Part shown: positions 30,662-39,436 of the stretch, one piece after another
Layout: every line of letters begins with the position of its first letter
Position numbering within the stretch: the stretch's first letter is position 1
NCBI GenBank assembly: GCA_029093145.1
Contig: GCA_029093145.1_4347.1
Direction: 5' to 3' (one strand)
Source: a phage
Length of the DNA: 44,066 nucleotides
The notes under the pieces: model-generated
Seen by the model: the letters and a program-made list of their open reading frames with translations, nothing else
What the model was told of the DNA's origin: nothing
Databases searched by the model: none
Program-made: the position numbers and the translations under genes

Positions 30662-30793
30662 TCATTCCAGCACCCACAGATAAATTGCGATGAACATGCC
30701 CAATATGGCAACCATCATGCCGTATTGACCCTCGTGACAGTAGACACCTGCGGCAAATCCCGCCAGTACCGCGATAATCAGTTTACTTAGCAT
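30662..30793 (-). CDS. small hydrophobic protein (43 aa)
   Basis: Hand-translated; overlaps 3' end of polymerase gene; hydrophobic MLSKLIIAVLAGFAAGV. Confidence 0.3.
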   Translation of the reverse strand: MLSKLIIAVLAGFAAGVYCHEGQYGMMVAILGMFIAIYLWVLE

Positions 30794-32954
30794 AGCGTTT
30801 TAACTCCTGACCTTCCGCTACAAGAGGGAACCCCTCCGCCCATTCTGGTAATTCGCACATCAATCGCTCAAGCTCTGCGACATTGTATTCCGGCGTATCT
30901 GGAGTTTCGCAGATAATCTCATCGTGGACATGAAGTACAATCGGGTAGCCGTTTGCTTCAACGTTAAGTAGCGCATTAGCCAGCAAGTCACGGCACAGTG
31001 CCTGAGTGCAGTTTTCCACCAGTTTACCGGAGTAGGTGTACTGGAAGCCCCACTGCCTGGTTAACTGATTTTCACCCTGATACTTGATGCGCACGTTAGT
31101 AGAAACTTTTCCGTCTTCGTCTGTCTCTTTTGACACGCTCAACCCGACGCCCGGGTATGACATAACGCGACCTGACGGCAACGTCATGCGCAACCACCAA
31201 CCAGCGACTTTGTTGCCGTTGTTGTCTGTTTCTACGTTGCGAGAAAACTTAACCCCGCGAGGGCCAGCGGTGAACTCTTTCCCCGGATTACGGATTGCTG
31301 CCATAGCTGCGTCTTCAATATCGCGCCAGAATTGGACTATTGCAGGATTAGCTTCCCGGTACATGCGCTTTAAAGCGTCACAGGTGCGCCAAACTTTCTT
31401 ATCAAGGATATATGAGGGTCGGTCATCTTTTTCACCAGGACGTGGTGGTCGCTTGGCTTCCTGAATACGCGCCCATTCGTATCCGCGTGCGGTAGCGGCC
31501 CAAATATGGTCCGGGAATGTACCGTCTAAAGTGTTAGTCATGTCATTCAAATCAAGACCTAAGTTTTTAGCAAACGTGACGAAAGCACCGACGCCCCCCG
31601 CGTAGCCGAGTCCCAGAACCATTGCTTTGGCTATTTGTCTTTGGTCCTTTGTTACGGCTTCATATGCAACATTGAACACCGTTGATGCGAGTTTCTTATA
31701 CACATCAACCCCGTTTACAAATACTTCGATTAAATCGTCTTCACCCGCCAGCCACGCAAGACCGCGGCCTTCGACGTTAGAGTAATCGGCGACGACAAAC
31801 TTATGCCCAGCTTCCGGTATAATGCAGCTACGAACGGTAGATGCCGTCAGCTTGGCTACGTCAAATCGGCGGTGCGCCCGGCCCTTAAGTAACGCTGAAA
31901 TGCCTTTATCCAGTTCATCATCGTGATAGTACCCACGCGCCAGGTTCTGTGGCTGGAAGCCTTTACCCGCGAACCGTAACGTACGCTTTGCCCCACCGTA
32001 CTGGATACAACCGCGGCGTCGGTCGTCAGACGAGCGGCCCAACAGCAGCGGGTTATATTTCGTGGACGCGGTGGACGCCGCCCCGAGGCGCATTTCGATA
32101 ATCATCCGGGCGTCGTCCGGTAAATCATCATCTGCCAACAGGTCGTTAAGCGTCGACTTCTGTGCATTGTGTATGCGGTGCGCGGGCGAAAGTTCACGCA
32201 GAATCGGAAGGAAGTCTTTACCGGTAAGCGAGCCGCCGTATTTACGTTGAGCTTCTTCCTGTAACTGTGCCTTGTGCTTCTCTACGGCTTCAATAGCGGC
32301 TTCCGCCAGTGCGACGTCAACCTTAAATCCGCGGTCGTTGATTAACTGGTCAAGCTCCAGTACACGGTCTTCGAACTCGGAGTTACCCCAACGCGGCAGC
32401 TTATGGAAGACTTCACGCATCGCAGTGATGTCGCTCACGGCGTACCTGATGAACATCGCCCACTCGTCAGGGTGAGTTTCTGCGGTGTAGCGGCGGATTT
32501 TGTAGTTCTTCGGCGTCGGTTTAGAGAAACGCTTAATCAGAGCCTTGCCGCGTTTATCTTTCGCGTTGTCTGCAGACACGCCCAGCACTTCGCACAGCGC
32601 ATCAAGAGAACCCGGCAGCGCGTGACGGAACGCCCAAATCATAGTATCAATGGTGTTACTTACCGGAATATCAAAGTCCCAGCAGTGTTTCATGATTAGG
32701 CGATCGAAAAGTCCACCGTTGTGCCACACCATCTTGATGCGGCTGTTGGGCTTAACAAGGCGGCGCAGTGCGCGGTGTAAATCCCCCGGCATGTCGCTGC
32801 CGTCGGTGCAATCCCATACCCGCACAGGTTCGTCGTCAAAAGCATATGTACAGATAAGCACTTCGGTTGACGGGTGTTCGGCGTAAGCGTAAGAACCGAC
32901 TTTCTTCAAATCGGCTTCTGAGAATGTTTCAAAGTCTAAGAACAGGTAACTCAT
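30783..32954 (-). CDS. DNA polymerase, family A, with 3'-5' exonuclease domain
   Basis: Exo motif FLDFETFS; Pol motif A DYSNVEGR, motif B RQIAKAMVLGLGYAGG, motif C HVHDEI. Confidence 0.92.
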   Translation of the reverse strand: MSYLFLDFETFSEADLKKVGSYAYAEHPSTEVLICTYAFDDEPVRVWDCTDGSDMPGDLHRALRRLVKPNSRIKMVWHNGGLFDRLIMKHCWDFDIPVSNTIDTMIWAFRHALPGSLDALCEVLGVSADNAKDKRGKALIKRFSKPTPKNYKIRRYTAETHPDEWAMFIRYAVSDITAMREVFHKLPRWGNSEFEDRVLELDQLINDRGFKVDVALAEAAIEAVEKHKAQLQEEAQRKYGGSLTGKDFLPILRELSPAHRIHNAQKSTLNDLLADDDLPDDARMIIEMRLGAASTASTKYNPLLLGRSSDDRRRGCIQYGGAKRTLRFAGKGFQPQNLARGYYHDDELDKGISALLKGRAHRRFDVAKLTASTVRSCIIPEAGHKFVVADYSNVEGRGLAWLAGEDDLIEVFVNGVDVYKKLASTVFNVAYEAVTKDQRQIAKAMVLGLGYAGGVGAFVTFAKNLGLDLNDMTNTLDGTFPDHIWAATARGYEWARIQEAKRPPRPGEKDDRPSYILDKKVWRTCDALKRMYREANPAIVQFWRDIEDAAMAAIRNPGKEFTAGPRGVKFSRNVETDNNGNKVAGWWLRMTLPSGRVMSYPGVGLSVSKETDEDGKVSTNVRIKYQGENQLTRQWGFQYTYSGKLVENCTQALCRDLLANALLNVEANGYPIVLHVHDEIICETPDTPEYNVAELERLMCELPEWAEGFPLVAEGQELKRYAK

Positions 32955-33014: not shown

Positions 33015-33641
33015 TTAGCGGCGACGACGTTCACGGCGCGGTGCTTCATCTTCTTCGTCATCTTCCAGGTCATTGACGCTCGCGGCGACTTTAGAACCGC
33101 CGAACGCTTTGCCTTCGCCAACGTATTTAATCGCCAGCAGGTTAACGCCGAGGACTTTGTATTTCTGGCTGAACCAGATTTCAACGCTTACGTTAGCTAA
33201 GCATCCGCTGTAAACCTGTTCACCTTCAATCTGTTCGCCGTCTACGTTGAAGTCCTGCTCTACCTGAGTCTCGCCTTTTTTAGAGGTTACAATCAGCGGT
33301 TGTTTCTGTGCCTTCGCTTTGAAGTAGAAGCCTTCCGGGAAGTCTTCAAACGGATTGTCGCGCTCGGCAATGTCTTTAATCGCGCATTTATCCATGTGCT
33401 TACCTTCACCGTAGTTGGACTTCATCCATTTCTCGGCAGCGGCTGCGCCTAACGCTTCTTCAACTACAGCGTAAACGGTGTCGTAGAGTGCATCGATTTG
33501 AGCATGGTCAGACGGCAGGATGATAGTCGCGCTGTACTGGCCTTTAGTGATTGAGCCATCATCGTTTTCACGGTCTTTTTCACGTTCAAATACGTTAACC
33601 CATGCAGTGTTTACTTTACGCAGATTCAGTTTAATACCCAT
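33015..33641 (-). CDS. SSB-like protein (DUF2815-like), acidic C-terminal region
   Basis: Position next to Cas4-like nuclease and polymerase; DLEDDEEDE near C-terminus. Confidence 0.45.
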   Translation of the reverse strand: MGIKLNLRKVNTAWVNVFEREKDRENDDGSITKGQYSATIILPSDHAQIDALYDTVYAVVEEALGAAAAEKWMKSNYGEGKHMDKCAIKDIAERDNPFEDFPEGFYFKAKAQKQPLIVTSKKGETQVEQDFNVDGEQIEGEQVYSGCLANVSVEIWFSQKYKVLGVNLLAIKYVGEGKAFGGSKVAASVNDLEDDEEDEAPRRERRRR

Positions 33642-33709: not shown

Positions 33710-33738
33710 ACTATAATAGCTAACTATTCAGGTGTCAA
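33710..33738 (-). promoter_or_regulatory. class A promoter TTGACA-N17-TATAGT with AATAG-N4-CTATT dyad
   Basis: Minus strand TTGACACCTGAATAGTTAGCTATTATAGT; dyad 33715-33728. Confidence 0.5.
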
Positions 33739-33927
33739 ATAAAATTTTGCAATAGGGATTATGTTCTCGAAATTAAGCATATTGGCCGGTTCGAACTCAT
33801 CCTCTACAGGGTAGTATCGCATCATGGTACCGTTCAAGAACGTGAACGATTCCGAGTGTAGATACCCATCCCAGTGCCATACCATCAAAAAATCTTTATC
33901 AGTCGGCATTTCATTTACTTGAATCAT
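33724..33927 (-). CDS. hypothetical small protein (67 aa)
   Basis: ATG 33927 overlaps stop of upstream gene; SD GAGGAGGA lies inside upstream C-terminal codons (track ORF opens at GTG 33957). Confidence 0.45.
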   Translation of the reverse strand: MIQVNEMPTDKDFLMVWHWDGYLHSESFTFLNGTMMRYYPVEDEFEPANMLNFENIIPIAKFYLTPE

Positions 33928-35165
33928 TCTAAATCCTCCTCTGTAACTTGATTCCACTCAGGACGTTTGTCATCCGCCGTTGCGACGCATGGCGCACCGG
34001 GCTTACGGGTAATGAAATCTTTCAGTTCTTCTTCCGGTACAATTTTAACCGCTTCGGTCGGTGTCATAAGAACTACCTTTTGCAGCATAGTACCGTACTT
34101 CTCGAATACTGCATCGGTATCTTTCCACGCACGATTACCCGGGCGTCCTTCAACCAGTTTATACCCCGGCACTTTCTTACCGGAATGTAACGCAGCAGCC
34201 ATAGCTTTCTCAACCTTGTCGATGTGCTGGCGCAACAACGGCAACTTCTCATACTCAGCTACGAGTTGCTCTGGCGTAAGCTCAAGTGCAAAGTCGTCCT
34301 CCAGTTCTTCCGCCAGCCCCGCGTTAACGGTTTTTGTACGCGCTGCGCATTGTTCAGAGAACCGACACCACTGACAACCATCTACCGACGGCTTGAAGTC
34401 CGACGCTTTCAGGTTCTTTTTACCCCGGAAATAGGCATCAAGAGCCAACAGCGCCCGTTTCTGTGCAAACTTAGCGAACAGTTCCAGACCTTCAACCGAG
34501 ATGTCCCACTCTGTCGCGCCCCCAGCGTAAGGCTGGAAGATGACCAGACGAACGGTTGTTATGTTATAACGTCTCTTGAGTCGACGATAAACACCGAGAG
34601 CGTAAAGCATAAGCTGCTTGTTTTCTTTCGCTTCGACGCGATGCCGCCCGGTTTTCAGGTCGCCGATAATGAGCATGTGCTCGTCGGTGTTTGCCAGTTC
34701 CTGGACAGCAACGAGGTCAGCGGTTCCGAACGTCTCAACGCCTTCATACCCCGGATGCAATACCTCAGTAAGATTGACACGCATTTCCAGCTTGGCGTAA
34801 GTCGCTACGTCTATAATCGCTTTGCAGTAGTCGGTGTACTTGCGCACCTGCTCAATCATGTCCGCCGTAATCAGTACCGCGCCTTTCATCGGGCTGATTA
34901 GCGCCTTAATCTGACCTTTGCCTTCATCCAGTACGTAAGCACCGACTTCACGCTCTAGCGGCAACGCAGTTCCGCGGATATAGGCGTTGAGATGGACCTC
35001 AGCTATTGTGTGCATAGCTGTGCCTAATACAGCAGCTTTACCTGACGTGTTAGGAATATCTTTTTCACAGGCCAGCGATGCGGCGCAACTTAGCCACTTT
35101 TTAGCCCCAGACGGCGACAGCAGGGCGTGCACATCGTTACTGCCGCCACGTTCTTTTAGTTTCAT
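33924..35165 (-). CDS. PD-(D/E)xK nuclease, Cas4/RecB-like (DUF2800-like) with Cys cluster
   Basis: Motifs GTADLVAV, IIGDLKTG, QLMLYA; cysteines CAASLAC and CQWCRFSEQC; SD GGGTGGGAG before ATG 35165 (track ORF opens at 35186). Confidence 0.7.
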   Translation of the reverse strand: MKLKERGGSNDVHALLSPSGAKKWLSCAASLACEKDIPNTSGKAAVLGTAMHTIAEVHLNAYIRGTALPLEREVGAYVLDEGKGQIKALISPMKGAVLITADMIEQVRKYTDYCKAIIDVATYAKLEMRVNLTEVLHPGYEGVETFGTADLVAVQELANTDEHMLIIGDLKTGRHRVEAKENKQLMLYALGVYRRLKRRYNITTVRLVIFQPYAGGATEWDISVEGLELFAKFAQKRALLALDAYFRGKKNLKASDFKPSVDGCQWCRFSEQCAARTKTVNAGLAEELEDDFALELTPEQLVAEYEKLPLLRQHIDKVEKAMAAALHSGKKVPGYKLVEGRPGNRAWKDTDAVFEKYGTMLQKVVLMTPTEAVKIVPEEELKDFITRKPGAPCVATADDKRPEWNQVTEEDLE

Positions 35166-35316
35166 GCTCTTAAACTCCCACCCCATTTAACTTTACGCGT
35201 TTTGCGTTTGTAGGCGCACGTGTCGCCGCTACGGTTGAATATAATCAGCCAAGTCGAGTTGCTTACGCGAAAAGGCTGATGGCGTTTAACAAACAGAAAA
35301 CGGGCTTTACGGTTCG

Positions 35317-35445
35317 TCACTCCTCACTCTCCTCAATCCATGCGTAGTCGAAACTGTCAGCGTCAAGTTCGTGTATCATATTCTCGGCCTCTGCGGATGT
35401 AAGGTATCTACTGTGTTCGTACTCTTCCTCACCGATTTGATACAT
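35317..35445 (-). CDS. tiny acidic hypothetical protein (42 aa)
   Basis: Hand-translated, start 2 nt after upstream stop. Confidence 0.25.
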   Translation of the reverse strand: MYQIGEEEYEHSRYLTSAEAENMIHELDADSFDYAWIEESEE

Positions 35446-35447
35446 AA

Positions 35448-35726
35448 TTACAAACATACCCTGTTCTCCCACTGGTCGATTAAATGTCTGGTCTTGTGGT
35501 CACAATGTAAGGCCCAGCCGTACATCGACTCGAAGACATAAAAGTCAGGCTTGGCGAAAGTCGTGCGTTTAATCTGCGACACGTGACGGCCTATATCTTT
35601 AGGCCGCGGCACTTTGCCTAAGTACACCATCTCTTCCATCTGGTGCGCACCGGACGGCGCACGCAACAGCCACAACGCCTCTGTGTTATCCCGCCTGTCT
35701 ACGGCGCGGTAGAGTTGGTAAATCAT
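35448..35726 (-). CDS. hypothetical protein (92 aa)
   Basis: SD GGAGGGG upstream of ATG. Confidence 0.45.
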   Translation of the reverse strand: MIYQLYRAVDRRDNTEALWLLRAPSGAHQMEEMVYLGKVPRPKDIGRHVSQIKRTTFAKPDFYVFESMYGWALHCDHKTRHLIDQWENRVCL

Positions 35727-35769
35727 ATTTCCGCCCCTCCGTTAAAGCGGCCCGAAGGCCGCCTGATAG

Positions 35770-36270
35770 TTATTCTTCTTCGAAATACTTGTTCTTGATT
35801 GCTGTCAAGCGTTCCAGGTACTCAACCAGGTCTTCGTCTTTAATCGCGGCAATCTTCATCTTCTTACCTGTGAACTCTTCCAGCAGTTCATCAGAATCAT
35901 CGCACGCGGCATCGCTAGGACCTTCATTAATTGCATCGTCGATGGCCTGAATCTGGTCACGCAGAGACTTATAGTCTACTTCTTCTTTCTCTTCTTCCGG
36001 CTCTGGCGTCGTTTCCTCTACTTTAGCTTTACGCGGCTTGCGTTTTGGCTTCTCTTCTTCTGCCGGTTTAGTGTCAACGATGTCTTCACCTTCTACCGGG
36101 ATTTCTTTTGTTGCTTCTTCAGCACACTCAGCTACCGCTTCTTTGGTGTACGATACCGTCTCTACTTCCAGCGGCGCGGCAACCTGAACAACTTGTTTCG
36201 CACTGTTCGCGGCAATCAGTTCATGTGCAACTACGAAACGTTCCAGTAATACTAAGAATTTCTCTAACAT
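35770..36270 (-). CDS. highly acidic hypothetical protein (166 aa)
   Basis: SD AGGAGAA; long E/D-rich tracts (EPEEEKEEVD, DDSDELLEE). Confidence 0.5.
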   Translation of the reverse strand: MLEKFLVLLERFVVAHELIAANSAKQVVQVAAPLEVETVSYTKEAVAECAEEATKEIPVEGEDIVDTKPAEEEKPKRKPRKAKVEETTPEPEEEKEEVDYKSLRDQIQAIDDAINEGPSDAACDDSDELLEEFTGKKMKIAAIKDEDLVEYLERLTAIKNKYFEEE

Positions 36271-36294
36271 TATTTATTCTCCTGTTTATTTGGG

Positions 36295-36522
36295 TTACTC
36301 GCCGTCGCCTTCTGTAAGGCTATCGTCTATTAATTCAAATCTACCGTTTGAGTGTTGAATAGCTTCTTGCCCGCAATGGTCACAGACAACAAGTTTATCG
36401 AACCCATCAAACTCATCCCCTACTACGCAAGAAAGTACAAATTTATGTTTTGTGCACACTTCTTGCGGAGCGCCGAAAATTGCTCGAAAACCTTTAGCTA
36501 TGGCCCCAGTGATTGTGTTCAT
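36295..36522 (-). CDS. small Cys-containing (zinc-finger-like) protein
   Basis: SD GAGAGGGG; CTKH ... CDHCG cysteine pattern; first gene after class A promoter. Confidence 0.5.
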   Translation of the reverse strand: MNTITGAIAKGFRAIFGAPQEVCTKHKFVLSCVVGDEFDGFDKLVVCDHCGQEAIQHSNGRFELIDDSLTEGDGE

Positions 36523-36550
36523 ATCTGCCCCTCTCGTTTGGTATGGGCTA

Positions 36551-36579
36551 ACTATAATAGCGAACTATTCACATGTCAA
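36551..36579 (-). promoter_or_regulatory. class A promoter TTGACA-N17-TATAGT with AATAG-N4-CTATT dyad
   Basis: Minus strand TTGACATGTGAATAGTTCGCTATTATAGT; dyad 36556-36569. Confidence 0.5.
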
Positions 36580-36643
36580 TGGGCTTTTCTAAAATAATTA
36601 ATATGGTACTATTCACATATCAACTGACTAAGGAGTAACTGAC

Positions 36644-36859
36644 ATGCAACCATCTGAACTAGGCACCCGTGTAGAACAACGCCGTAAAGAACTCGGCATC
36701 TCCCAGCGCCGTTTGGCGGCCCTGACCGGCGTTTCCCAGGGCGCGATTAACCAACTGGCACTTGGAGTAACTCAGGACGTCCGCCCGGCAACGCTGTTCA
36801 AACTGGCGGAAGTTCTGGAAGTAGACGCCAAGTGGCTGGCGTTAGGTGAAGGGGCTTAA
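36644..36859 (+). CDS. Cro/CI-type HTH (XRE family) transcriptional regulator
   Basis: ISQRRLAALTGVSQGAINQLALG helix-turn-helix; SD AAGGAG; divergent from replication operon. Confidence 0.85.
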   Translation: MQPSELGTRVEQRRKELGISQRRLAALTGVSQGAINQLALGVTQDVRPATLFKLAEVLEVDAKWLALGEGA

Positions 36860-36875
36860 AGCCCCTTTCTTTTTA
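36849..36875 (+). terminator. rho-independent terminator
   Basis: AAGGGGC-TTAAA-GCCCCTT followed by TCTTTTT. Confidence 0.6.
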
Positions 36876-36876
36876 C

Positions 36877-39144
36877 CTATTCCAAATCCTCCTCTGTCAC
36901 TGTCAACATTTCATTCGGTTCGTATATTGTCTTTGGAATCTTGTTATCAGTTATTCTGGTGTTCAGCCTGTAACGACCTGGGATTATCTGATTGTTTTCG
37001 TCAGTACCCGGAACAAGATACCCGGCCTCAACCATTTTCTTAATCTTCCCGCGTTCTATGGCTTCTTTGGAGTTAAACGCCTTTGCGTTTGGGTCTGACT
37101 GTGCGAGCTTATTCGCCGCGGCGACTGTGATGCCTTCGTTGCCGTTGTAGGTTCCTTCCGCCAGTTCAAACGCCGCGAGTATCGTGGCCTCCGAACTGTT
37201 GACGGCGTTCTCTACGGTTTTACGTACATTTTCTTTACCTTCTTTCGTCAACCCTTCTTCCCGCTCTTTCTCCTCGTCAGTTTTGAACGGCTCGAAACCC
37301 CACGGCATCAACACAAGCGCCTTGTGTGGTTCAGGCAGGTCCAGGTTTACGATTGTGCCGTATTCCTCTGTGCTACCCAGGAACTCAACCGCTCGGTATT
37401 CTTTAGGTGGCGGCGCTTCACGGAACTGTACCGACTCCAGCACCATGCCAACCGTCTTCTGCTGAGGCCCGTGCTTGAATTTCGAGTGATATACGTTTAT
37501 CTGACGGTCGGTTGCACGTTCGATTGTCAGTTCCACATCAACACCCGCATACAGCGCCCCACTGCCGCGTGCTTTCTTTCCACCCTTCGGCGTATGGTGG
37601 ACAACGCCTACTGCGGCTTTAGTTGCATCGCGTACTTCTTTCAGAATGGCGATAACTTTACCCATGCCGATTGCTGTTGATGAACTGTTCTCGTCGAACT
37701 TATCAATCGTCAGTGCCAGGGTCTGGTTAAGGGTGTCGAACGCAACCATGCCAATTGGCTCGTCGCCAGCAGTTTCGCGCATTAACTTAATCAGGCTTTT
37801 AAGTTTGCCGACTTCGCCCATATCGATGACATGTACATAATCTTTACCTTCCTCGCCGTATTTAGCCGCGAGCGCATCAATACGTGTACGTGTGGCTGCC
37901 CCACCCTCGCCGTCGATATAGAAATGGTGACAACGCTGGGTGTCAGCCCCTGCAAACCGGTATCCGGCGGCGCTCAGGTACATCATCCCCAGCGTATAGA
38001 ATGATTTGTACGTGCCCGATCCTCCGACGATACCCCAGATACAATCCGACGGCATGTACCCCTCAACGACGAAATCAGCCTTTACCGGCTCCGGTAACTC
38101 GTCCTCCTCTGAGTCCTCGTCGTCTTCCAGGTCGTCGAGGCTGCATGAGACAGATTCACGCGCCCCCCAACCGATGGCCTCTGCGACTTCACTGAACGGC
38201 AGCCCGGTCGCATCGCACGCGTACTTCCACACCTCTTTCGGTGACAGGCCTTCTGTCGCCGTAATGTCTGTGTCGTGAATCATGGTTACGTTTGGCGCTT
38301 CATACCCCTCGCGCGGGAAGCACAGCAGGAAGTCGTCCGGGCGCGGTGTCGGGTCGCTGTAGTTTTCGGCATGTTCCGGTGTGGCTGGCATCTTAAGGCC
38401 GCGCGGCGTCATGACGCCGCCGTACTCAAACGCCAGTGCTTCAAACGCGTCTGTAAACGCGGTGCGCAGTTCTTCCGGTATCTGGTAATCCGATGCGCTG
38501 CTAACGTCAACGGCTGGGATGCCTTCCAGTAACTCGTTCGGGTCGATCAGGTCGTTGCGGCGCGACCAGATAACGGTAGCGCCGACCGGCGGCAGGTACA
38601 TCGGCTGCGACAGAGTGAACCCGCTGCGGTCCGCACCCATGCCTTTGAAGAAGTGCTCCAGCAACCCATGACGAACACGGATGATATCACCACCCTCAAC
38701 TGGGCGGGCCAGCGGCATGACGACGCGAAAGCGAGGCGACTCATCGGTATGTGATGCCGTGGTGTAGAGACACATCGCCCGGCAGCTGCGATTAACCAGG
38801 CGCACCGCTTCCTGGTACTCTTCCGGTGTTGCACTGTCGAAGTCCAGATACGCCAGCGACGATTTGCTCACAGACGCGTCACAGCGATAGAAGAAGCCTT
38901 TACGCGCTTGTTTAAAGCCACCGGTTTCCGGGTCTTTTACGGTGCTGTGTGTAGAATCGCACGCGGCCGTGATATAACCGGGCGCAGTCTTGGGGTTAAT
39001 CCCGTCACGAACGGCATCGAGCGGCTGGATTAACTCTTTCAGGTCGTCCAGTGTTGCCGTGTGTGCGGTTCTGACATTTATATCCTTTTTCCCCGCCCGC
39101 GCGTTGCGGCGTGACCACGAGTAGGATAAAATTACATCGGACAT
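36877..39144 (-). CDS. primase-helicase (AEP-type primase-polymerase domain fused to RecA-like ATPase)
   Basis: N-terminal YLDFD and TTASHTD motifs (AEP-like); central Walker A GGSGTYKS and Walker B GMVAFDTL. Confidence 0.6.
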   Translation of the reverse strand: MSDVILSYSWSRRNARAGKKDINVRTAHTATLDDLKELIQPLDAVRDGINPKTAPGYITAACDSTHSTVKDPETGGFKQARKGFFYRCDASVSKSSLAYLDFDSATPEEYQEAVRLVNRSCRAMCLYTTASHTDESPRFRVVMPLARPVEGGDIIRVRHGLLEHFFKGMGADRSGFTLSQPMYLPPVGATVIWSRRNDLIDPNELLEGIPAVDVSSASDYQIPEELRTAFTDAFEALAFEYGGVMTPRGLKMPATPEHAENYSDPTPRPDDFLLCFPREGYEAPNVTMIHDTDITATEGLSPKEVWKYACDATGLPFSEVAEAIGWGARESVSCSLDDLEDDEDSEEDELPEPVKADFVVEGYMPSDCIWGIVGGSGTYKSFYTLGMMYLSAAGYRFAGADTQRCHHFYIDGEGGAATRTRIDALAAKYGEEGKDYVHVIDMGEVGKLKSLIKLMRETAGDEPIGMVAFDTLNQTLALTIDKFDENSSSTAIGMGKVIAILKEVRDATKAAVGVVHHTPKGGKKARGSGALYAGVDVELTIERATDRQINVYHSKFKHGPQQKTVGMVLESVQFREAPPPKEYRAVEFLGSTEEYGTIVNLDLPEPHKALVLMPWGFEPFKTDEEKEREEGLTKEGKENVRKTVENAVNSSEATILAAFELAEGTYNGNEGITVAAANKLAQSDPNAKAFNSKEAIERGKIKKMVEAGYLVPGTDENNQIIPGRYRLNTRITDNKIPKTIYEPNEMLTVTEEDLE

Positions 39145-39202
39145 GTTGTATTTCCTTCAGCAAGTAATTTGGCCTCGGCGTTCACCGCGTCGGGGCTTTC
39201 TT

Positions 39203-39436
39203 TTATTCCAGGTCTTCTAAAGTAGCGGTCATTCCGCGAACTTCAGCAAAGGCACTATATTTCCCGCCAACATTTTTCACGACGCCAGATTTAACCAGCA
39301 CTTTTAACGACCCTTCAATAATGACGGAACTATAGTACTTAAAATAACTGCGGCGCAAGTCGATAACGCTGCACGACCCTTTTTTACGTGTTAATGAAAC
39401 GACTGCCGTAAATACGCGTGACTGGAACTCGGTCAT
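39203..39436 (-). CDS. hypothetical protein (77 aa)
   Basis: Overlaps HTH gene start by 4 nt; shares C-terminal LEDLE tail with two replication proteins. Confidence 0.45.
   Translation of the reverse strand: MTEFQSRVFTAVVSLTRKKGSCSVIDLRRSYFKYYSSVIIEGSLKVLVKSGVVKNVGGKYSAFAEVRGMTATLEDLE

Follow-up and report, generated by a model that had tools for sequence, protein, structure and literature searches.

A lineage-specific acidic C-terminal tail shared by replication proteins of a Kagunavirus-type coliphage, with a probable role in docking

Three proteins of the replication operon of a phage, a DUF2800 nuclease, a primase-helicase and a 77-residue protein (p77), end in the same acidic motif, (T)EEDLE or, in p77, TLEDLE. 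The genes lie in the 44,066-nucleotide contig GCA_029093145.1_4347.1 (NCBI GenBank assembly GCA_029093145.1), the whole of which is referred to here as the window. The shared tails are real and non-random. We find that TEEDLE is best read as the Kagunavirus/Jerseyvirus version of an acidic-plus-hydrophobic tail that is shared, lineage by lineage, by the proteins of the duf2800–gp2.5–polA–primase/helicase gene module, and that it is probably a short linear motif for docking, borne at the end of a disordered C-terminal extension. The tail-bearing proteins, together with the single-stranded DNA-binding protein (SSB) of the same operon, are as follows.

33924–35186, minus strand: DUF2800/PD-(D/E)XK (Cas4/RecB-like) nuclease, 420 residues (Pfam PF10926, E=7e-67 over residues 20–409; PF12705)
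33927–33947, minus strand: nuclease tail VTEEDLE, codons GAGGAGGATTTAGAATGA
36877–39144, minus strand: primase-helicase, 755 residues, with an AAA_25/RepA-DnaB-like helicase core (Pfam PF13481)
36880–36900, minus strand: primase-helicase tail VTEEDLE, at the tip of a low-confidence extension of ~20 residues
39203–39436, minus strand: p77, a winged-helix domain (residues 1–64) and a low-confidence tail (residues 65–77) by AlphaFold2 (AF2) and Foldseek; PHROG 5169
39206–39223, minus strand: p77 tail TLEDLE, codons TTA GAA GAC CTG GAA
33015–33641, minus strand: gp2.5-type SSB/annealing protein (DUF2815, Enc34_ssDNA-bd; Pfam PF10991, E=4e-16; PDB sequence hits 4jg2 and 5odj)
33045–33074, minus strand: acidic SSB segment NDLEDDEEDE, with an invariant [ND]DLED core at the DDF[DE] position of distant SSBs
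33018–33044, minus strand: Arg-rich extreme C-terminus of the SSB, APRRERRRR, kept in Guernseyvirinae and Dhillonvirus and absent from distant DUF2815 SSBs

Results

Three replication proteins end in the same motif

A sequence-only reading of the window had proposed that three replication proteins share an acidic C-terminus, and all three endings are as it described: immediately before the stop codon the nuclease reads NQVTEEDLE, the primase-helicase LTVTEEDLE and p77 TATLEDLE. Across all six-frame stop-to-stop open reading frames (ORFs) of at least 30 residues in the 44 kb, EDLE occurs three times, and each occurrence is the last four residues of one of these proteins. No other C-terminal 4-mer is common to different proteins in the 71-gene set, and none of 20,000 random draws yielded a 4-mer common to at least three proteins. 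With the three terminal EDLE as the only copies and this outcome of the randomisations, chance sharing of the tails is rejected.

The genes belong to a leftward replication and recombination operon that spans 39.4 to 28.6 kb in the order p77, primase-helicase, several small ORFs, DUF2800 nuclease, a 67-residue ORF, SSB, family A DNA polymerase (Pol A), VRR-NUC and SNF2. The window is affiliated with the Guernseyvirinae as a Kagunavirus-type coliphage; its 7-kb replication region is 96% identical to BEU33 and BEU35 and 93% identical to Bas73, and 477 further phage records match the region, chiefly Salmonella Jerseyviruses and Escherichia Kagunaviruses. The PF10926, PF10991 and PF00476 genes are adjacent and all on the minus strand. 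This is exactly the set of the duf2800–gp2.5–polA module, published from gene context only (Steczkiewicz et al. 2021, PMC8093625), to which the window adds VRR-NUC, the SNF2 helicase and the primase-helicase. The nuclease tail (residues 410–420) lies outside the DUF2800 Pfam model, which ends at residue 409. Homologues of the primase-helicase are annotated as replicative helicase-primase. The Pol A of the window has no tail motif of its own.

The SSB and the primase-helicase carry internal copies

The further proposal that the SSB-like protein bears an acidic DLED motif near its C-terminus also held; the protein ends VNDLEDDEEDEAPRRERRRR. SV[ND]DLED is invariant in the SSB of the Kagunavirus and Jerseyvirus loci, and the acidic run that follows it drifts. 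Since this motif aligns where distant SSBs have DDF[DE], the window SSB appears to carry an L-for-F version of theirs. The motif (SVNDLEDDEEDE) is internal in the window SSB and is followed by RRERRRR. A second internal copy was found in the primase-helicase:

38086–38142, minus strand: acidic linker SLDDLEDDEDSEEDELPEP joining the primase part to the helicase part, with an internal DDLED copy

Within this linker SLDDLED is invariant in relatives and the acidic run after it varies. Counted together, [EDN]DLE has five copies in four proteins of the replication module, all of them in acidic, low-complexity segments. We also note that the linker SLDDLEDDEDSEEDELPEP closely resembles the SSB tail SVNDLEDDEEDEAP. 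The order of charges in the SSB tail varies among relatives, being acid-basic-acid in SP-031 and basic-acid-basic in VLCpiS11a; unlike the window SSB, T7 gp2.5 and the distant DUF2815 SSBs remain acidic right through the tail.

The tail is conserved as a peptide in close relatives

Conservation of the tail in homologues had been put forward as the check on the proposal, and at the protein level the answer is positive, through synonymous codon changes, domain swaps and loss of the overlap with a Shine–Dalgarno sequence. In 47 related loci (10,117 six-frame ORFs) terminal [ED]DLE occurs 87 times: on 30 nucleases, 30 primase-helicases and 25 homologues of p77, and on two further small ORFs. The replication module contains both of these ORFs; one follows the nuclease (contig L019), and the other, which ends MTATDEDLE, is found in Klebsiella phage VLCpiS11a just upstream of the polymerase. 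The primase-helicase ending YEPNEML.VTEEDLE is kept in ~115 of 120 homologues, and it persists even though the ~100 residues before it occur as at least three unrelated variants. The nuclease tail in relatives reads [ST]E[ED]DL(E), and AT[LP]EDLE is present in all Kagunavirus and Jerseyvirus p77 homologues. Amino-acid change across the loci is almost confined to the third position of the tail (E/D/G/V), and the codons vary synonymously (ACA/ACC/ACT, GAG/GAA, TTA/TTG/CTG/CTT). Many nucleases are encoded AGT GAA GAA GAT TTG GAA TAA, with neither the Shine–Dalgarno sequence nor the overlap, and still end SEEDLE. A ribosome-binding cassette is therefore insufficient to account for the peptide, given these nucleases, the different codons of p77, the synonymous variation and the survival of the tail through a domain swap; it is the peptide rather than the DNA that is conserved.

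In four other lineages the endings are as follows:

Jerseyvirus ST1: nuclease ITEEDLE; primase-helicase TTEVDLE (TEGDLE in others); p77 ATPEDLE
Cornellvirus SP-031: nuclease ATDSDLDD; primase-helicase SEEDDLEN; no p77
Klebsiella phage VLCpiS11a: nuclease ASDEDLS; primase-helicase ASDEDLNS; no p77
Dhillonvirus JL1 (46% nuclease identity): nuclease ATDEDLSNE; primase-helicase ATDDDLKD; no p77

The Dhillonvirus type can be written ATD[ED]DL. Two primase-helicase homologues with no DUF2800/DUF2815 context visible (P0044 and P0050, known from 8–10 kb contigs only) end ..SDDLGLE and ..EDDAQAE rather than TEEDLE; no neighbouring gene has the same ending, which within contigs of 8–10 kb is weak evidence. 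The primase-helicase is itself mosaic. Many homologues (P0040–P0120) share only its C-terminal ~58%, at 77–92% identity, from which we take it that the N-terminal primase part has been swapped.

The tail DNA doubles as a start cassette for accessory genes

The nuclease and primase-helicase tails are also alike as DNA. They share 19 nt (ACAGAGGAGGATTTRGAAT; expected matches 0), and the local match extends to 23 nt, with a score of 36 against a null maximum of 22; it reads AGT[TG]ACAGAGGAGGATTT[AG]GAAT. The p77 tail DNA has other codons and shows no similarity to either of them. We looked at all three gene ends for a translational-coupling cassette, that is, a GGAGG-type Shine–Dalgarno sequence 5–10 nt before a stop-overlapping ATG that opens a real ORF. 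The nuclease has one: as had been noted, its tail codons do contain the Shine–Dalgarno sequence of the gene that follows (33724–33927), together with the start of that gene in an ATGA overlap. The accompanying claim that no downstream gene makes use of the primase-helicase tail is right for the window, where a TAG stop is followed by a hairpin and no ATG, but it does not extend to relatives, at least 13 of which have a primase-helicase tail ending in TGA that overlaps the ATG of a 65-residue, 104-residue or other accessory ORF. The p77 gene is followed by a 58-nt spacer and has no such cassette.

33724–33927, minus strand: 67-residue accessory gene (MIQVNEM...), translationally coupled to the nuclease (PHROG 6314)
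36848–36868, no strand assigned: GC hairpin directly 3' of the primase-helicase stop, between convergent genes; an accessory gene stands here in relatives

The slot behind the nuclease varies among relatives, in which at least five different small genes, or a promoter-like TTGACA..TATTAT, have been found there. Hot spots of gene-content variation thus lie at the 3' end of the nuclease gene and likewise at that of the primase-helicase gene (33724–33927 and 36800–36880; loci L009–L047). At both sites relatives have different small accessory ORFs, ATGA-coupled, or alternatively a terminator (primase-helicase) or promoter-like sequence (nuclease), and the two gene ends are mosaic junctions. The tail DNA of these two genes thus also acts as a Shine–Dalgarno-plus-ATGA cassette for variable accessory genes, a real second constraint, and the cassette role in relatives explains the 23-nt identity. 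Shuffling of accessory genes between the two junctions by way of the 23-mer is unsupported, as none of the accessory genes seen at one site was seen at the other.

A GC-rich hairpin immediately follows the p77 stop (39171–39197) and another the primase-helicase stop (36848–36868), each preceded by AAAAGAAAG on the coding strand; both score as intrinsic terminators on the plus strand. The first stands between p77 and the start of the primase-helicase, and similar GC-rich sequence is found at the same position in Jerseyvirus; this intergenic hairpin may be regulatory.

Two tails follow predicted winged-helix domains

The AF2 model of p77 has a mean predicted local distance difference test (pLDDT) score of 84.8, above 90 for residues 1–60 and below 50 for residues 65–71. 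Helices at residues 3–19, 24–30 and 37–50 and strands at 53–66 (pLDDT >90) make up the three helices and β-hairpin wing of a winged helix. The top Foldseek hits are the LexA-N, MotA-N and RPA32C winged helices, at E ~1e-2, which is too weak for a subfamily assignment. The primase-helicase is predicted to have a comparable arrangement:

36964–37194, minus strand: predicted winged-helix-like domain, residues ~651–727 of the primase-helicase (AF2 pLDDT ~80; helices and a β-hairpin)

In the alignment this domain is found as at least three swapped sequence variants among Kagunaviruses. With the last 180 residues modelled by AF2, the last ~20 have a mean pLDDT of ~49; Foldseek gave only weak winged-helix hits for the C-terminal model (E ≥0.07). 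In these models, the tails of p77 and the primase-helicase presumably sit on disordered extensions that follow folded winged-helix domains. We also considered p77 as a paralogue of the primase-helicase C-terminus and rejected it, because there is no BLASTP alignment and no DNA similarity between them and only the predicted architecture is alike.

Distant phages with the module have matching tails of their own

A HMMER search of 1.84 billion cluster representatives returned 11,230 DUF2800 relatives of the nuclease. The closest ~18 end [TSN][DE].DL plus 0–3 residues; more distant ones have ..SDKRPA.. followed by a DDFEDL-type motif, often with a terminal [DE]DL[ILVF]. The mean net charge of the final 20 residues, taken over 146 full-length DUF2800 representatives, is -3.5 versus -0.7 for internal windows, and an acidic-hydrophobic motif is present in 34% of the C-termini versus 3% of internal windows. 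Phages that carry the module but are otherwise unrelated have lineage-typical tails, common to the nuclease and the gp2.5-type SSB and in many cases also to the primase:

Chi-like BP12C: primase ..PFDDEDEV; nuclease ..AWDDEDDDEV; SSB ..AWDEDEDWEDEV; SNF2 ..VWDDEE
Achromobacter AXY1: primase ..TDLDDDDDQL; SSB ..TDLDDDDDAL
Caulobacter RapA: nuclease VVDDFEDLTQQ; SSB KVDDFEDLSDQ
Streptococcus Javan8: primase ..DDGDDFLD; SSB ..DDDDDFLN
Staphylococcus Rih21: SSB EDDFDEL..DEDFL; nuclease EDDFDKL; primase ..SLEDLI
Bordetella phage: SSB EDEFDDI..ADLV; nuclease ADDFVDV..EDLV

The Chi-like type is WDDED..EV (the BP12C SSB tail includes WDEDEDWEDEV), the Achromobacter type is TDLDDDDD.L, and that of phages of Gram-positive hosts is DDF[DE]..DFL. 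Tails are more alike within than between genomes when partners are shuffled among the genomes of 14–15 hand-picked lineages and scored by the best 6-mer identity (P=0.003 for nuclease and primase, 0.007 for nuclease and SSB, 0.037 for primase and SSB); an earlier version of this permutation test covered 11–12 lineages. We regard this within-genome matching of sequences as supportive rather than decisive. In BP12C (L054 9330–10805) the SNF2 helicase ends in the lineage tail type, ..GVWDDEE, and a 139-residue protein upstream of the nuclease ends ..GEEDDV, so the set of tail-bearing proteins appears to differ between lineages.

Discussion

A probable docking motif and its precedents

The sequence-only reading had called a shared acidic docking motif plausible, and the proposal is now supported by conservation at the protein level, codon variation, lineage-specific tails and a parallel in T7. 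We infer the following scheme. The motif would mimic the one in the acidic tail of the gp2.5-type SSB that the phage itself encodes (SV[ND]DLED in the window), and p77, the nuclease and the primase-helicase would take turns in occupying a common basic receptor site. Candidate receptors are the concave single-stranded DNA (ssDNA)-binding groove of the gp2.5-type SSB, put forward because this groove takes tails in trans in crystals, and a basic patch on the family A polymerase, put forward by analogy with T7 gp5. In either case the enzymes would be tethered to the replication and recombination complex. If the receptor were the SSB groove, ssDNA emerging from the helicase or nuclease could drive the tail out of the groove and be bound by the SSB in its stead, a hold-and-release hand-over.

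The closest precedent is T7, where gp2.5 ends ..EDGDF and gp4 ends ..NDTDF. These two tails dock on gp5 DNA polymerase/thioredoxin, where they bind basic patches of the polymerase and are interchangeable. The gp2.5 tail is reported to bind the gp5 polymerase and gp4 helicase and to be required for stimulation of the gp6 exonuclease (PMC4124056). As in T7, the window has a gp2.5-fold SSB (PF10991), and one short acidic motif recurs in a presumably disordered C-terminal region of both the helicase-primase and the SSB, the SSB copy being internal. The window differs from T7 in several respects: its tails end in Leu-Glu and not in Asp-Phe and so lack the aromatic tip, two of its carriers, the Cas4/RecB-like nuclease and the small winged-helix protein, are absent from T7, its SSB motif is internal and followed by an Arg-rich end, and its polymerase is without a demonstrated thioredoxin-binding loop. 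F or W does occur in the motif of more distant module members.

A second precedent comes from the SSB family itself. Crystals of Enc34 ORF6, of gp2.5 and of two further DUF2815 proteins show the acidic tail of one molecule inserted in trans in the concave β-sheet of its neighbour, so a tail-accepting site exists in the DUF2815 family (PMC5686142). The window SSB belongs to the same Pfam family as Enc34 ORF6, a DUF2815 SSB with an acidic, unstructured C-terminal tail. Unlike the window SSB, Enc34 ORF6 ends ..WDEDEV, a W-type tail that is acidic to the very end; the paper describing it mentions no matching tail on a nuclease or primase (PMC5686142).

More remote parallels exist in other systems. 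Like the bacterial SSB tip, TEEDLE is an acidic run with hydrophobic residues that ends a disordered tail and may serve as a multi-partner address; unlike it, TEEDLE has neither the Pro-Phe tip nor any terminal aromatic residue. The bacterial tip (DDDIPF in Escherichia coli, also DDDLPF) is an interaction hub that ends in Pro-Phe with a free carboxylate. There, one tail serves many partners, whereas here many proteins carry one tail for what is presumably one receptor. The window also resembles λ Exo–Redβ, RecE–RecT and T7 gp6–gp2.5 in having a resection nuclease beside an annealing/SSB gene, for which specific physical coupling is expected. In λ it is a folded domain of Redβ, rather than an acidic nuclease tail, that makes the contact; a further difference from these exonuclease–annealase pairs is the RecB/AdnA-like fold of DUF2800.

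Several observations weigh against docking. The motif ends in Leu-Glu, whereas a C-terminal aromatic residue is essential in the T7 and bacterial SSB tails, and the extreme end of the window SSB is basic (RRERRRR), such that the T7 scheme is not transferable unchanged. Premature-truncation escape mutants of the DUF2800 nuclease are described in phage Bas14 (preprint, bioRxiv 10.64898/2026.07.14.737667), and on their account loss of the nuclease tail may give only a mild phenotype. Part of the similarity between the nuclease and primase-helicase is accounted for at the DNA level. The permutation test depends on the hand-picked lineages and the simple 6-mer score named above, and primases without such a tail are found in Vibrio, Paenibacillus, Rhodobacter and Bacteroides phages.

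Other explanations of the shared tail

The tail might be a by-product of conservation at the DNA level, with GAGGAGGATTTRGAATGA acting as a Shine–Dalgarno, spacer and ATGA cassette, possibly also a recombination junction, for interchangeable accessory genes. The overlap of the nuclease tail with the next gene's start, the overlapping TGA of the primase-helicase in at least 13 relatives, the gene-content hot spots at both positions and the significant 23-nt match all fit this explanation. It fails for p77, with its other codons, lack of DNA similarity and 58-nt spacer, for the nuclease GAA GAA..TAA variants that keep SEEDLE before promoter-like sequence, for the primase-helicase tails of JL1, VLCpiS11a and SP-031, which keep [ST][DE][DE]DL without a Shine–Dalgarno sequence or start, and for the SSBs and primases of distant phages, whose shared tails come with no cassette of this kind. 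A pure DNA repeat or Shine–Dalgarno artefact is thereby rejected as the sole cause; the cassette is real as a second layer for two of the three genes and not the whole story, and we consider it unlikely that it alone gave rise to the tails. We judge it similarly unlikely, if by a shade less, that each tail is auto-inhibitory, an acidic DNA mimic lying on the DNA-binding surface of its own protein (winged helix or nuclease cleft), as in gp2.5, gp32 and HMGB1, with no shared partner. Every carrier binds or processes DNA, a predicted winged-helix domain directly precedes the tail in p77 and in the primase-helicase, and the acidic tail of Enc34 ORF6 tunes discrimination between ssDNA and double-stranded DNA (PMC5686142). 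Auto-inhibition needs negative charge only, however, and leaves unexplained the identical T-E-E-D-L-E on unrelated folds, the lineage-specific co-variation among proteins of one genome and the near-identical primase and SSB tails of AXY1 and BP12C.

It is improbable that the tails address a host factor, either as a mimic of the host SSB C-terminus that recruits replication and repair proteins or as a proteolysis or localisation tag. Some distant tails (..DDLF, ..DEDFL) do resemble the bacterial SSB C-terminal motif, and the tail type appears to follow the host group. TEEDLE, however, has neither the Pro-Phe tip nor the C-terminal aromatic that define SSB-Ct recognition, and the C-terminal tags known for ClpXP and Lon are not acidic. 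Coliphage lineages with the same host use quite different tails (TEEDLE, ATDEDL, WDDEDEV, T7 ..DF), which favours a phage-encoded, co-evolving receptor. The least probable explanation in our estimate is common descent or gene conversion without present function, for example through duplication of a winged-helix-plus-tail unit into p77 and the C-terminus of the primase-helicase. These two do have the same architecture, a winged helix followed by a low-confidence tail ending EDLE, and gene conversion would fit the nearly identical tail DNA of the nuclease and primase-helicase; yet p77 and the primase-helicase C-terminus have no detectable protein or DNA similarity, a neutral relic would not last to ~46% nuclease identity and through domain swaps, and tail substitutions are overwhelmingly synonymous or conservative.

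Docking on a phage-encoded partner could be taken one step further. The tail may be a lineage-specific address code of a hub-and-spoke replisome or recombinosome, in which clients (nuclease, primase-helicase, small winged-helix proteins and, in some phages, the SNF2 helicase) would compete for one groove on the SSB or Pol A and would be displaced by emerging ssDNA in a hold-and-release mode of loading. The code would evolve in concert, keeping the modules of co-infecting phages incompatible, and the DLED plus Arg-rich end of the Guernseyvirinae and Dhillonvirus SSB would be a built-in competitor or switch. We put this extension forward tentatively and hold it to be doubtful.

Novelty and significance

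Tail-mediated replisome organisation is already known from T7, as is the duf2800–gp2.5–polA gene module from earlier work; our literature search found no description of shared, lineage-specific C-terminal tails in this module. The duf2800–gp2.5–polA–primase module is among the most widespread replication and recombination cassettes of tailed phages. If the docking proposal is right, a motif readable from sequence marks the members of one complex and offers a handle for pull-downs and peptide competition; the tail peptides are NEMLTVTEEDLE, PEWNQVTEEDLE and RGMTATLEDLE, and the SSB segment is ASVNDLEDDEEDE. It would also suggest roles for small tail-bearing proteins (p77 and the two further small ORFs in relatives), which is of value for annotation, could explain module compatibility in mosaic phage genomes, and would extend the T7 paradigm of a tail-mediated replisome to a recombination nuclease. 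One stretch of DNA would then be under two constraints, as a proposed protein docking motif and as a ribosome-binding and start cassette for accessory genes.

Other features of the operon

The remaining core gene of the module is the polymerase:

30783–32954, minus strand: family A DNA polymerase, 723 residues (Pfam PF00476 and PF01612)

The similarity of the window SSB to 5odj is weak (E=0.006). Pfam gives no match for p77, the 67-residue protein or a 166-residue protein encoded at 35770–36270 (minus strand), and PHROGs places them in families of unknown function only. The 166-residue protein is very acidic and Lys/Glu-rich (PHROG 3127) and is elsewhere annotated as a "13.88 kDa late protein". 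It ends KYFEEE, relatives retain an aromatic-plus-acidic ending (KYYEVEE, EFYDAE, TYFELED), and this ending may be another tail type within the same module. Two sigma-70-like promoters with 11 of 12 matches (TTGACA-17-TATAGT) are found on the minus strand, one at 36551–36579 upstream of a 75-residue ORF and one at 33710–33738 within the end of the 67-residue ORF, upstream of the SSB gene. In the Salmonella Jerseyvirus ST1 (L002 5881–8979 and 9573–12038) the polymerase and SNF2 ORFs are 1032 and 821 residues long, versus 723 and 476 in the window, which suggests inserted elements, for example inteins or insertions of the homing-endonuclease type. The nuclease matches are split in two pieces in several Jerseyviruses.

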